Virus record (IMG/VR): IMGVR_UViG_3300021254_000022
Location: 4,857 to 68,856 of that record
Source of the DNA: a virus
Lineage: Duplodnaviria; Heunggongvirae; Uroviricota; Caudoviricetes
Strand: one strand, 5' to 3'
DNA length: 64,000 nt
The notes beneath the pieces were generated by a model, which had not been told where the DNA came from, did no database searches, and was given only the letters and a program-made list of their open reading frames with translations. Made by a program: the position numbers and the translations under genes. Shown here piece after piece: positions 10,897 to 15,150 of the stretch; position 1 is the first letter of the stretch; each line of letters begins with the position of its first letter.

Positions 10897-11670
10897 ATGA
10901 TTAGTTTAGTTGCAAGTAATGGCGCTGGAGGCGGCGTTAAAAAATATTTTTTTGATACTGTTGATGACTTCAATAATTTTGTAATTAATTCTCCTAATAT
11001 TGCTGTTGGAAGTGCAGCTTATATAGTTGAAAGTGGAGAAACTTATGTTTTAAATATAAAAAAAGAATGGAGTCTTACTGAAGTTCATGGCGGTGGTAAT
11101 AATCAAGGAGCTGCTGGTAAAGACGGAAAGTCTGCTTATGAAATAGCAAAATCTCATGGCTTTATAGGAACTGAAGAAGAATGGCTTGAAAGTTTAAAAG
11201 CTTCAATTTCAGAAGAAGAATTAAAAACTATTATAGAGCCTCTTATTCAAATAAAAGTTGATAATATTTTATATAATAAACCAACGCTTACTCTTAATTC
11301 AGAATATGAATTAAGAAAAGTTTTGGAAGTTAATACGTATGAAGAAATTTTTATTAGTTTTATTGAAGATATTACTTTAACAGATAATTTTGTTGTTCCA
11401 GAAGGAAAGAAAATTATTATTAATATGGATGTAGATAATACTTTTGGCCTTGATGGACATACTATTGATGTTTATGGAGAACTTCAAATATTAAATGTTG
11501 ATTTTTTTGATTCAGATGAAAAATTTCTTAATATATATGATTCTGGTAAAGTAACTTCTATAGAAGATCTTTCTGATTTTGTTAATATTATAGGAGAAAA
11601 TGCTCAATATCAACCAGAGTCTAATTCAAAAGAAGAAAATCCATCTGATGGTGAAAATGAAAATTCTTGA
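10897..11670 (+). CDS. tail-fiber-like protein (GKDGKSAYEIA...GTEEEWLESLK motif)
   Basis: motif typical of phage tail-fiber/collagen-like proteins; RBS aatggaggaaaaaat. Confidence 0.5.
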   Translation: MISLVASNGAGGGVKKYFFDTVDDFNNFVINSPNIAVGSAAYIVESGETYVLNIKKEWSLTEVHGGGNNQGAAGKDGKSAYEIAKSHGFIGTEEEWLESLKASISEEELKTIIEPLIQIKVDNILYNKPTLTLNSEYELRKVLEVNTYEEIFISFIEDITLTDNFVVPEGKKIIINMDVDNTFGLDGHTIDVYGELQILNVDFFDSDEKFLNIYDSGKVTSIEDLSDFVNIIGENAQYQPESNSKEENPSDGENENS

Positions 11671-11721
11671 TTTTATAAAAAAAATATGATATTATAAAAA
11701 TAATAAAGGAGGAAATGCCTT

Positions 11722-13473
11722 ATGCCAATGACAGCAGCATAGATGAATACTTTAAAAACTGCCATAAAAAATGAATTTTAGCGTAGAGCAAATCCTCGCG
11801 GCGGATCTTTAGCTGGGACTGTCGGAGTAACCGCTTTTTCTACTACTCCTGCAGCAGGAGGTATTATATATCAAGAACAAGGTAATAAAACCCTTGGTGG
11901 TTTATTGCTTGTAAAAGATATTTCTCATACTTATACTCCTTCAACAGGAAATAAAATTCCTCCTGGTTTTGATTATACTGGATTAAATAATTTTGTTAAT
12001 ACTTTAGCAAATGAATCAATAACTGGTTCATCATCTTCATGCCGAGGAGGTTGTACAGGTTTATGTGTAGGAGACTGTTATAGTTCAGCAAGTGGAACAA
12101 CAGGTTCTATTAAAGGTTGCTCTGGCTGCGCTTCTTGGTGTTATGGATGCTCAGGACGATGTGGTAATAACTGCACTGGAGGTTGTCAAGGTTGTAGTGC
12201 ATGTGGAGGTAATTGTGCTTCAGGCTGTCAAGGCTGTACTGGCTGCGGATCTGGATGCGGCAATGGTTGTTCAGGATGTTCTGCACGTTGTGGAGCAAAT
12301 TGTACCGGAGGTTGTTCTGGATGCACCGGAGGTTGTGGATCTTCATGTTCAGCAAGATGCACTGGATGTGCCGGATGCGGAGGCGATTGTGCTTCAGGTT
12401 GTCATGGTTGCACTGGATGCGGAGGCAATTGCGCTTCAGGTTGTCATGGATGCACAGGATGTGGATCTGGATGCGGCAATGGTTGCTCAGGATGTAAAAG
12501 TAATTGTGGACAAAATTGCGGTGGACAATGCTCAGGCTGTGGAGGCTGTTGTAGCGGAACTTGTCATAGTCGTTGTTATGGTTGTTCTTCAAAATGTTAT
12601 AACAGTTGTTCTAGTGGATGTAATGGATGCAAAGGTGGATGCCAAGGTTGTTCTGCTTCTTGCGGTTCTGAATGTGCTTTTGGCTGTTCTGGAGGATCTG
12701 GATGCGGCACTTGTCAGGTAGGGTGCTCTGGAGACTGTTCAGGCTGCGGAGGTTGCGGTCGTGGAGGCTGTAAAGGTTGCTCTGGAGGCTGTGGAGGCTG
12801 CTCTGGAGGTTGCTCAAAAACTTGCTCTGGTACATGTGTAAATTCTTGTGATACTGGTTGCCATAAAGGTTGTAAAAGTAAGTGTGGTAAAAGCTGTGAA
12901 GGAAATTGTGGTAACAGTTGTAAAGGTCATTGCTCAGGATGTACAAATTGTGGAAATGGATGTGCTGCAAGATGTACTGGATGTACTGGAGGTTGCGGAG
13001 GATCTTGTTCTGCAAGATGTACTGGATGTACTGGAGGCTGTGGATCTTCATGTTCTGCGAGATGTACTGGATGTACCGGCTGTGGTAGTGCTTGTGCTGG
13101 AGGTTGTAATGGATGCTCTGGACGTTGTGGAGCAAATTGTACTGGAGGCTGTTCAGGATGTACTAATTGTGGAAATGGATGTGCTGCAAGATGTACTGGA
13201 TGTACTGGAGGTTGCGGAGGATCTTGTTCTGCGAGATGTTCTGGATGTACAGGATGCGGAAATAACTGTACCGGATGTAATGGATGTACAGGCACATGTG
13301 GAAATAATTGTTCAGGTACATGTGGAAATACTTGCTCTGGATGCGGATCGGGATGTCAAACAGGATGTACTACAGGCTGTAGTGGTGCATGCACTAATGC
13401 TTGTAGTGGTACGTGTGGTGGCAATTGTACTGGAAGATGCTTTGGTAGTTGTCAAGGAACAACAATGACTTAA
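11722..13473 (+). CDS. 583-aa Cys/Gly/Ser-rich tandem-repeat protein (about 150 Cys; repeats like [16 protein letters not shown]), 2 in-frame TAGs near the N-terminus
   Basis: strong RBS ataaaggagg + ATG 11722; TAGs at 11740 and 11785 in frame with ORF 11905..13473. Confidence 0.5.
12966..13240 (+). repeat. near-identical intragenic tandem DNA repeats (~54-nt units) within the Cys-rich gene
   Basis: tgtactggatgtactggaggttgcggaggatcttgttctgcaagatg recurs at 12966, 13021 and 13189. Confidence 0.6.
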
Positions 13474-13501
13474 TAAATATAAAGATAAAAAGGAGTTTTT
13501 T

Positions 13502-13801
13502 ATGAAGCAATTAATTAAAACAATTCATGTTGATAATCAAGATATTATTGATCTTCTTGAAAGCCTTCAATTTGAAGTTGAAAGTAGAAAAGAAGTAATA
13601 GGATTCTTAATTAGCAGTAATGGAATTAATTCAGAATCTTTTAGAAAATATGAAAAAGAATATCAAGAATTTTATATTAAATATCAAACAGCAAAAGAAG
13701 AATTTGAAGAAGCATATGTAAAGCCAAATATTAGTGAAGAAGATGGATATGTCAATTGGGATTTAGATTTTCAATTAAAAGAAGTTAAAATTTATATATG
13801 A
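13502..13801 (+). CDS. hypothetical protein (99 aa) between the Cys-rich protein and the radical SAM enzyme
   Basis: ORF; ATGA overlap with the downstream gene. Confidence 0.45.
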   Translation: MKQLIKTIHVDNQDIIDLLESLQFEVESRKEVIGFLISSNGINSESFRKYEKEYQEFYIKYQTAKEEFEEAYVKPNISEEDGYVNWDLDFQLKEVKIYI

Positions 13802-15150
13802 GTACACTTGAACAATATATTACTATAAGAACTGATGCTGAATTTACTGATACTTTAGGGAGATTATTTCCAGAAGAATTCAAAATTCAAGAAGGAGAAA
13901 AAAAACTTCTTACAAAAACCGTCAGTTTTCAAGTAACAGATGATTGTTGTATGGCTTGTTCTTATTGTTATCAAATTTGTAAACAACATCATAAAATGGA
14001 TTTTGAACAAGCCAAAAAATTTTTAGATCTAATTCTCGATTTAGACAATCCATGTGATTATATTAATCCAACCAATTCTCCAGGTATTATTTTAGATTTT
14101 ATTGGTGGAGAACCTTTTATGAATATCAAATTAATTGATTAGATATGTACTTATTTTACAGAGCAGCTAATAGAAAAGAATCATCCTTGGTTATTTAGAC
14201 ATAGATTTTCTATATGCTCTAACGGTTTATTATATTTTGAACCTGAAGTTCAAGCTTTTTTCCATAAATTTATAGGGAGAATTTCTTTTTCCATTTCAAT
14301 TGATGGAAATAAAGAATTGCATGATTCTTGTCGAGTTGATCTTGCTGGAAATGGTACATATGATAGAGCCATGAAAGCAGTTAATCATTTCAGAGATTAT
14401 TTTCATGGTTCTATGGGATCAAAAATGACATTGGCTCCTGGAAATATTACATATACAAAAGAAGCTGTAATTAGTTTGATTGAAAATGGTTATGATCTTA
14501 TTCATTTAAATTGTGTATATGAAGAAGGTTGGACTAATGAACATGCTAATATATTATATTATCAATTAAAATCTTTAGCAGATTATATGATAGAACATAA
14601 ATATTATAGAGATCATTATTTATCTATTTTTAATTTTAATAATTTTAAACCAAAAGATCCTGAAGATAATGATAATTGGTGTGGTGGCGTAGATAATTTT
14701 ATGATTGCAGTAGATTATAAGGGTGATATTTATCCTTGTATTCGCTATATGGAATCTTCTTTAGGAACTGATCAAAAACCAGTTATTATAGGTAACACTG
14801 AACATGGGGTATATGTAACCGAAGAAGAAAAAGAATGGAAAAAAGAATTAGTCGGTGTCACTAGAAAAAACCAATCTACAGAAGAATGTTTTAATTGTCC
14901 TATTGCCGAGGGATGTGCTTGGTGTAGTGCATACAATTATCAAAAATTTGGTACAGTAAGACACCGAGCAACTTTTATATGTCCTATGCATAAAGCTACA
15001 TCGTTAGCTAATGCTTATTATTGGAATAAAGTTTGTCGAGATTTACATCTTCAAGAAAGATTTAAAATATATTGTCCTAGAGAATGGGCATTAGAAATTA
15101 TTCCAGAAAAAGAGTGGGATTTATTAAAAACTCTTGAATTATCATATTGA
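13798..15150 (+). CDS. radical SAM / SPASM-domain enzyme (450 aa, 1 in-frame TAG at 14140)
   Basis: CxxxCxxC (DDCCMACSYCY) N-terminal; C-terminal Cys-rich SPASM-like motifs (CPIAEGCAWCSAYNY...CPMHK); frame continuous from 13798 into ORF 14317..15150. Confidence 0.6.

Follow-up and report, generated by a model that had tools for sequence, protein, structure and literature searches.

Introduction

Radical S-adenosylmethionine (SAM) maturases with a SPASM domain are known for modifying short peptides. PapB, of the freyrasin system (NF047865), installs several thioethers on a repeated Cys motif, and its substrates are short peptides with C-x3-D/E. CteB, of the SCIFF (six Cys in forty-five residues) system, binds its substrate through an N-terminal recognition element (RRE) for peptides that are ribosomally made and modified after translation (RiPPs); SCIFF peptides are about 45 aa long and contain six Cys. 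A third pairing is already named, from comparative genomics only: enzymes of TIGR04115, the "radical SAM peptide maturase, CXXX-repeat target family" (rSAM_Cxxx_rpt), with targets of TIGR04114 (tSAM_targ_Cxxx), TIGR04117, and TIGR04118. Here we analyzed a locus of this kind in a large, gut-type tailed phage (Caudoviricetes). It lies in a 64,000-nucleotide stretch of IMG/VR record IMGVR_UViG_3300021254_000022 (positions 4,857 to 68,856), hereafter the window, and comprises genes for a Cys-repeat protein of 583 aa, a partner protein of 99 aa, and a radical SAM/SPASM enzyme of 450 aa.

The window protein is an unusually long member of the known CXXX-repeat kind. New here are the linkage of the three genes across 100 loci, their setting between tail and lysis genes, and the architecture variants of the Cys-repeat protein. 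As the best overall reading we tentatively propose a TIGR04115 phage cassette that makes a thioether-cross-linked, tail-associated Cys array.

Results

Family membership of the radical SAM enzyme

The enzyme scored 433.8 bits on NCBIfam model TIGR04115 (cutoff 350, E 6.4e-130) over model positions 1-359 of 359, and thus passes the equivalog cutoff of the family. The second-best model was that of PapB (162.8 bits vs a cutoff of 340), and the SCIFF maturase model TIGR03974 gave 97.8 bits vs a cutoff of 425. Scores were lower on the anaerobic sulfatase-maturating enzyme (anSME) model TIGR03942 (52.2 bits vs a cutoff of 349) and on the models of the cyclophane-forming enzymes XyeB and YhhB (41-55 bits), and the QhpD score was far under its cutoff. 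The hidden Markov model scores thus place the enzyme among the peptide- or protein-modifying radical SAM/SPASM maturases and not among nucleotide or cofactor enzymes, as a preliminary description of the locus had proposed. That description had also likened the gene pair to SCIFF and ranthipeptide systems. The thioether synthases PapB and CteB do come next after TIGR04115, but the locus goes beyond a likeness to SCIFF or ranthipeptides, because a named family for precisely this pairing already exists.

The closest solved structure was CteB (PDB 5WGG, E 1.6e-18), with which the window enzyme shares a radical SAM core and a SPASM domain. The alignment begins at CteB residue 72; therefore, unlike CteB, the phage enzyme lacks an N-terminal RRE. 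The CX3CX2C motif and seven SPASM Cys were invariant in 10 sequences, namely the window enzyme and nine phage homologues. Literature searches on the CXXX-repeat system, its TIGR models, PF27846, ranthipeptides and phages, and radical SAM enzymes and virions found no paper, and no characterized TIGR04115 member was found in the literature.

Two homologous enzyme genes carry inteins, both placed at Fe-S ligand cysteines. The enzyme of locus L018 (positions 6861-9251, 796 aa) has a LAGLIDADG-type intein before the third Cys of CX3CX2C (...CQY/CLTGD...FIVHN/CYQ), and that of L073 (5980-7689, 569 aa) has a mini-intein before a SPASM Cys (GCAW/C...VHN/CSAYNY).

The Cys array

The Cys-repeat protein contains 126 Cys, fewer than the approximately 150 of the preliminary description, and 153 Gly. 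Its 471-aa array has 125 Cys-to-Cys intervals, of which 81 are CXXX, 40 are CXX, and 4 are other spacings. The spacing is regular, as had been described; it does not follow a strict C-x2-C-x3-C period but a mix of CXXX and CXX at about 2:1. The same mix was found in 73 homologues (CXXX 2394 vs CXX 868, or 73:27). Such regularity cannot arise by chance at 27% Cys. The X residues are mainly G, S, T, N, or A, with very few aromatics: the second X of CXX units is Gly in 90%, and CXXX units have small residues at the X positions and no fixed acceptor. Conservation is highest at the junction (C-x3-C-T-G-L-C) and at a C-[FYW]-G cap, the latter present in 26 of the 73 homologues. At the DNA level the array contains imperfect tandem repeats of 42-219 nt.

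The window protein shares two traits with the named CXXX-repeat targets: Cys recurs at each third or fourth position, and its gene is adjacent to that of the enzyme. Its C-terminal 65 aa reached 20.8 bits on TIGR04114 (cutoff 20), and the homologue in L001 reached 21.3 bits; the full-length protein and the whole array gave no match to this model, probably due to the composition filter. It differs from the named targets in its length of 583 aa and its 106-aa globular domain, as the target models span 18-98 positions. Further differences are the conserved 99-aa partner, which is not modelled in NCBIfam, and the setting in a TAG-recoded phage of at least 185 kb. Across the related loci the median Cys count was 37.5 and the highest 145 (L089), so that the 126 Cys of the window are near the top.

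AlphaFold modelled the array with low confidence (mean pLDDT, the predicted local distance difference test, 43.8), and only model residues 374-517 reached about 65-70. Short beta-strands were drawn in part of this low-confidence model. A beta-solenoid fold of the array is thus neither supported nor excluded by the prediction. Cys-rich beta-solenoid and metallothionein-type proteins resemble the array in combining Cys with Gly, Ser, and Thr and in such short strands, but they rely on disulfides or metals and not on a dedicated radical SAM enzyme.

The globular domain and architecture variants

A profile of the trimmed N-terminal globular domain matched 609 clusters at 50% identity with E<=1e-3, and 378 with E<=1e-10. 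The domain was almost always located at residues 1-115, in proteins of 150-250 aa. With this conserved family behind it, the Cys-rich open reading frame (ORF) is a genuine, conserved gene, as originally assumed. AlphaFold predicted three helices for the domain with weak confidence (pLDDT 55-67). No relative was found in the PDB, and hhalign showed no resemblance to the 99-aa partner. Neither the globular domain nor the partner nor the additional domains of homologues matched anything in Pfam (a set without PF27846), NCBIfam, or PHROGs, and cluster look-ups returned only "hypothetical protein" names.

The position of the domain and the company it keeps vary. In three loci (L019, L078, and L100) it lies C-terminal to the array, and no partner was detectable in these. 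Homologue P0147 consists of the globular domain, the array, and a C-terminal globular domain of about 175 aa, a layout that resembles the anchor-shaft-head plan of fibers, and P0165, P0156, and P0271 contain additional beta-rich domains. In many loci the system is split into a gene for the domain plus a short array and a separate all-array gene with its own start codon. The occurrence of the domain at either end of the array, together with the homologues that carry extra domains, argues against a simple leader peptide. From their sequences, these architectures appear to fit a fiber or adhesin better than a leader peptide.

Two further variants were noted. P0145, a 334-aa protein of the representative library, contains the globular domain, a Cys array, and the partner within one ORF. 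Such a fusion may be Rosetta-stone evidence that the parts interact, or it may reflect a lost stop codon. In the target relative of L002 (positions 2219-2746), the globular domain is replaced by a twin-arginine-like signal (SRREFFK); here a partner homologue is found downstream of the enzyme gene. L002 may represent a bacterial, exported version of the system.

Conservation and gene neighborhood of the cassette

We compared 100 related loci, comprising two unannotated fecal phage records, 18 IMG/VR contigs, and the best 80 of 199 matches among GTDB species genomes. An ORF was counted as Cys-rich if it had at least 15 Cys. One lay on the same strand as the radical SAM gene and within 2.5 kb of it in 92 of the loci, and none was found farther away; four of the eight misses were truncated contigs. 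The partner family was found in 89 loci and ended at most 120 nt from the start of the radical SAM gene in 82. The three-gene order first noticed in the window therefore recurs in about 90% of the loci.

Neighboring gene families were surveyed in a sample of 30 loci. Among 88 upstream neighbors, the commonest PHROGs were baseplate wedge, baseplate, tail collar fiber, and tail fiber; downstream (56 of the 62 proteins scanned), they were endolysin, amidase, and holin. With baseplate and fiber genes upstream and lysis genes downstream, the cassette closes the tail module in many prophages. Peptidase, exporter or transporter, and metal-handling families were not among the commonest neighbor families in this sample. 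The survey shows that the CXXX-repeat kind is largely a phage tail-module cassette.

Nearly all named genome records came from anaerobes: Oscillospiraceae, Lachnospiraceae, other Clostridia, Treponemataceae, Slackia and Raoultibacter (Coriobacteriia), and Desulfosporosinus. Some carrier metagenome-assembled genomes were labelled Tenericutes or Mollicutes. Carriers in culture include Neglectibacter timonensis SN17 (L023), Eubacterium pyruvativorans i6 (L032), Desnuesiella massiliensis mt10 (L045), Anaerolentibacter hominis CSJ-1 (L047), Vallitalea maricola AN17-2 (L063), and Anaerobacterium chartisolvens DSM 27016 (L077). The same architecture was seen at GC contents from 36% to 60%.

The 99-aa partner

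AlphaFold (117 homologues) modelled the partner with high confidence (pLDDT 93.6), with a beta-strand at residues 4-9, helices at 13-39 and 45-76, and a beta-hairpin at 85-98. It matched no family in Pfam, NCBIfam, or PHROGs, no PDB sequence, and no specific fold. Because of its tight linkage, its translational coupling, and the P0145 fusion, the partner is probably a helper of the enzyme that holds either the substrate or the enzyme itself.

A PqqD-like RRE was considered for the partner and rejected, as the model is not a winged helix of the PqqD kind (a three-stranded sheet followed by three helices) and no family matched.

In six loci an extra gene of 166-202 aa lies between the Cys gene and the partner (L001:5104-5712, L017:7200-7715, L045:5075-5632, L063:5181-5681, L066:5132-5668, and L077:5041-5598). 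The PHROG scan that included these genes gave endolysin, amidase, holin, hemolysin, and tail fiber as the commonest families, none of which could be attributed to the six. The extra gene may be a fourth component of the cassette.

Organization of the locus

Four co-directional genes on the plus strand fill positions 10897-15150 of the window, in the order tail-fiber-like gene, Cys-repeat gene, 99-aa gene, and radical SAM/SPASM gene, exactly as preliminarily described (Table 1). The ATG of the Cys gene at 11722 sits 8 nt past AAAGGAGG, a Shine-Dalgarno sequence. The radical SAM gene starts 325 nt after the end of the Cys gene and overlaps the 99-aa gene by 4 nt (ATGA).

The first gene encodes a 257-aa protein with the fiber motif GKDGKSAYEIA..GF.GTEEEWLESLKA, which is common in phages. 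The motif is confined to residues ~58-128, and the PHROG matches of this protein to tail, tail-fiber, and sheath families are restricted to the same residues. The protein matched no Pfam family and showed no profile similarity to the globular domain of the Cys protein (hhalign). Its sequence contains zero Cys, and it is therefore unlikely to be a substrate.

An exact protein look-up identified an ENA contig (L101) that is 100% identical across window positions 10502-16801 (6.3 kb). The same phage was also found on a 184,958-bp scaffold (L102; ENA ERZ28612963 scaffold_88), and its genome is therefore large, at least 185 kb. This third assembly has a 100-N gap within the Cys array; the exact repeat number is therefore hard to assemble.

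Table 1. Features of the cassette and its surroundings in the window.
Feature	Position	Strand	Basis
Context gene, 257 aa with phage tail-fiber motif	10897..11670	+	PHROG matches
Cys-repeat protein, 583 aa, putative substrate	11722..13473	+	ORF with Shine-Dalgarno; homologues P0001-P0011
Conserved globular domain, residues 1-106	11722..12039	+	Profile search; several homologues have Pfam PF27846
In-frame TAG, codon 7 of Cys gene	11740..11742	+	Aligns with N in P0001, P0002
In-frame TAG, codon 20 of Cys gene	11779..11781	+	Aligns with Q in P0001, P0002
Cys array, residues 107-577	12040..13452	+	Cys spacing; ends in C-F-G-S-C cap
Junction motif C107-RGG-C111-TGL-C115	12040..12066	+	Alignments; C, C-T and C invariant in family
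Partner protein, 99 aa	13502..13801	+	Present in 89/100 loci
Radical SAM/SPASM maturase, 450 aa, TIGR04115	13798..15150	+	HMM score; PHROG 1802 at 8e-64
Radical SAM cluster motif C50-x3-C54-x2-C57	13945..13968	+	Sequence and alignment
In-frame TAG, codon 115 of radical SAM gene	14140..14142	+	Q in 4/9 aligned homologues
SPASM region, seven invariant Cys (C295, C314, C364, C367, C373, C376, C395)	14680..14982	+	Alignment
Suppressor tRNA, anticodon CUA	15314..15403	+	ARAGORN and Rfam

TAG recoding

Both the Cys gene and the radical SAM gene contain in-frame TAG codons and had been said to need TAG suppression. Codons 7 and 20 of the Cys gene fall within the conserved N-terminal helix, and codon 115 of the radical SAM gene lies between the Fe-S motif and the remainder of the barrel. 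A tRNA(CUA) gene is located 164 nt downstream of the radical SAM stop codon. When TAG read-through was permitted, the codons in long plus-strand ORFs rose from 11,340 to 13,530. This gain, together with Q at aligned positions of homologues, upholds the claim.

The tRNA(CUA) has the acceptor stem UGGGGA...UCCCCA, with U1-A72 and G73, and a long variable arm of about 22 nt. Its acceptor stem and discriminator base look tRNA-Gln-like, by comparison with E. coli tRNA-Gln. From these sequence features, TAG is likely read as Gln. A variable arm of this length is unusual for a Gln tRNA.

The TAG codons were also considered as a marker of late expression, and this was rejected as weak. TAG use was uneven across window positions 39083-57384, where the genes for gyrase-like subunits, NAD ligase, DnaB-like helicase, and primase are TAG-free but 3 TAGs occur in a RecJ-like gene (55621-57384) and 6 in a GIY-YIG gene (46730-47722); these identities were assigned by reading the sequences.

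Discussion

Proposed role of the cassette

The Cys array is very probably the substrate of the radical SAM enzyme. That the reaction is thioether formation, for which PapB serves as the mechanistic template, is about an even call. The window enzyme is a radical SAM/SPASM enzyme like PapB, but it scores under the PapB cutoff and is not a member of that family, and its array is nearly without Asp and Glu. A location of the product on the virion is plausible, though we would not put it at an even chance.

In the proposed sequence of events, the 583-aa protein would be produced late and by TAG read-through. We assume read-through because of the in-frame TAGs and the nearby suppressor tRNA, and late timing solely because the cassette lies between tail and lysis genes in related prophages. 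The enzyme, which has no built-in RRE, would then act on the Cys array, probably with the help of the 99-aa partner. By analogy with PapB and CteB, the enzyme would take a hydrogen atom from a neighboring residue and bond that carbon to the Cys sulfur. Repeated along the array, the reaction would form many thioether cross-links and yield a compact, rod-like polymer resistant to reduction and to proteases. Instead of acting as a leader peptide, the globular domain of about 106 aa would be a structural or anchoring module that attaches the protein to the phage tail. After maturation, the protein would form a tail-associated fiber, whisker, or adhesin on phages of strict anaerobes, a setting in which disulfides are expected to be unstable.

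The synteny with tail-fiber genes and the domain architectures make a fiber or adhesin plausible. Phage fibers with repetitive shafts (collagen-like or Gly-rich) offer a parallel, as the cassette also lies beside baseplate and fiber genes, some homologues have a modular anchor-repeat-head plan, and the repeat length varies widely among related phages. We know of no phage fiber that consists of Cys repeats or owes its maturation to a radical SAM enzyme. A more specific version, which we regard as rather doubtful, is that the array forms a fiber shaft stiffened by dozens to more than 100 thioether bridges, a "thioether ladder" that would substitute for disulfides in habitats that are anoxic and reducing. 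If true, this would be the first case in which a radical SAM enzyme matures a structural protein of the virion; among RiPP-type maturases, no other substrate would come near it in size, and the 99-aa protein would be a new type of substrate-presenting partner.

Several observations weigh against a cross-linked tail protein. In the window, the cassette is placed within a tRNA-rich accessory region with no recognizable tail operon; the fiber motif was found only in the adjoining 257-aa gene, and the rest of the region is rich in tRNA and accessory genes. None of the cultured phages in INPHARED has the cassette, and DNA and protein searches of cultured phages matched only unannotated human-fecal contigs and unrelated jumbo-phage radical SAM genes. 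The array lacks a conserved acceptor residue comparable to the Asp/Glu of PapB substrates, with 4 Asp and 2 Glu in 471 residues. AlphaFold gave no confident fold for the array, and Foldseek found no significant match (best E 0.29). About 126 Cys per molecule would demand unusually many turnovers for a radical SAM enzyme. Finally, the slot between tail fibers and lysis genes is a classic site of non-structural moron genes.

Alternative explanations

The last point leads to the strongest alternative, in which the product does not belong to the virion. Lysis might release it as a large RiPP-like product, or it might be a moron protein that serves lysogenic conversion. The globular domain would then be a leader or follower recognition domain, and the modified array would work off the particle, for example as an antimicrobial, as a signal, or as a matrix or adhesion factor of the lysogen. 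NCBIfam does class the enzyme as one of the RiPP maturases, and some targets are small (TIGR04118 has 46 positions). Besides the moron-like position of the cassette, the L002 version, which has the twin-arginine-like signal (SRREFF) and no globular domain, implies export outside the virion, and in many loci a second, all-repeat protein is encoded on its own, from a separate start codon. However, peptidase and transporter families were not among the commonest neighbors, the globular domain may precede or follow the array, and some homologues carry head-like or beta-rich domains as fusions. The cassette also occurs in the window phage, whose genome is 185 kb or longer and whose 64-kb window showed no lysogeny genes, and products of 150-670 aa far exceed known RiPPs in size. 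We therefore consider an off-virion product unlikely, though a serious contender.

A second alternative concerns the chemistry: the enzyme might convert Cys in the array to formylglycine, as anSME does, or catalyze epimerization, C-methylation, or C-C cross-linking. SPASM enzymes are known for all these reactions, no acceptor side chain is conserved in the target, and the literature offered no characterized TIGR04115 member as a guide. The model scores point elsewhere, as the anSME score of 52 bits falls far below its cutoff of 349, XyeB and YhhB gave only 41-55, and thioether synthases ranked at the top after TIGR04115. Such chemistry thus seems improbable.

Thirdly, the array might be a metal- or iron-sulfur-binding polymer similar to metallothionein, with the radical SAM enzyme modifying only the junction or cap or using the array as a scaffold. 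The composition, 27% Cys among small residues with few aromatics, is metallothionein-like; conservation peaks at the junction and at the cap (26/73 homologues) and not in the bulk of the array; and the variant with the twin-arginine signal suggests folding or cofactor loading before export. On the other hand, the closest characterized relatives of the enzyme make Cys thioethers on repeated motifs, the strict 3/4 spacing persists through hundreds of units, an argument that each one matters, and metal-handling families were not among the commonest neighbors. We judge a metal-binding role quite improbable.

The possibility that the Cys ORF is an artefact, be it low-complexity repeat DNA that codes for nothing or a chimeric assembly, could draw on the other frames and the antisense strand, which are also open through the repeat, and on the 100-N gap in one assembly, but it is effectively refuted by the continuity of the frame with a conserved domain of 609 clusters, the array cap reaching the TIGR04114 cutoff, the second assembly (L101) being identical through the whole region, and the recurrence of the architecture at GC 36% to 60%.

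Significance

Returning to the cross-linked, tail-associated array, the TIGR04115-type family appears, from the sequences of its targets, to act on whole proteins of 150-670 residues, and its carriers are mostly phages and prophages of anaerobes, from the gut and elsewhere, in which it lies next to host-recognition genes. If a cross-linked fiber or adhesin is what the cassette makes, enzyme-made thioethers would join the means by which virus particles are stabilized, a widespread unannotated gene trio (its domain alone counts 609 clusters) would be explained, and a processive cross-linking enzyme would become available for protein engineering. Even if the product acts off the virion, the locus provides a concrete set of substrate, partner, and enzyme for a family that has an in-silico name only.

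Other features of the region

A scan for promoters and terminators gave background level only. The cassette lies inside a region (window 338-18797) in which 18 tRNA genes, all on the plus strand, are scattered among accessory genes. Two further stretches, at 15211-15300 and about 16100-16175, contain the perfect tRNA T-arm GGTTCGAATCC, and the first also has acceptor-like pairing (GACGATT...AATCGTC). Neither was called by ARAGORN or Rfam; both lie directly upstream of real tRNAs, the CUA suppressor and Leu-UAA, respectively.

A family-2 glycosyltransferase gene with 2 in-frame TAGs is located at 16617-17648, 1.5 kb downstream of the cassette. From reading of their sequences, four genes in the window (4040-5299, 15423-16067, 20858-23584, and 37318-38961) resemble those of cell-wall-binding or hydrolase proteins. 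All four have in-frame TAG codons, and two have signal-peptide-like N-termini. The gene at 4040-5299 matched tail-protein/lysin families in PHROGs, and that at 15423-16067 has Pfam SH3_3 on record.

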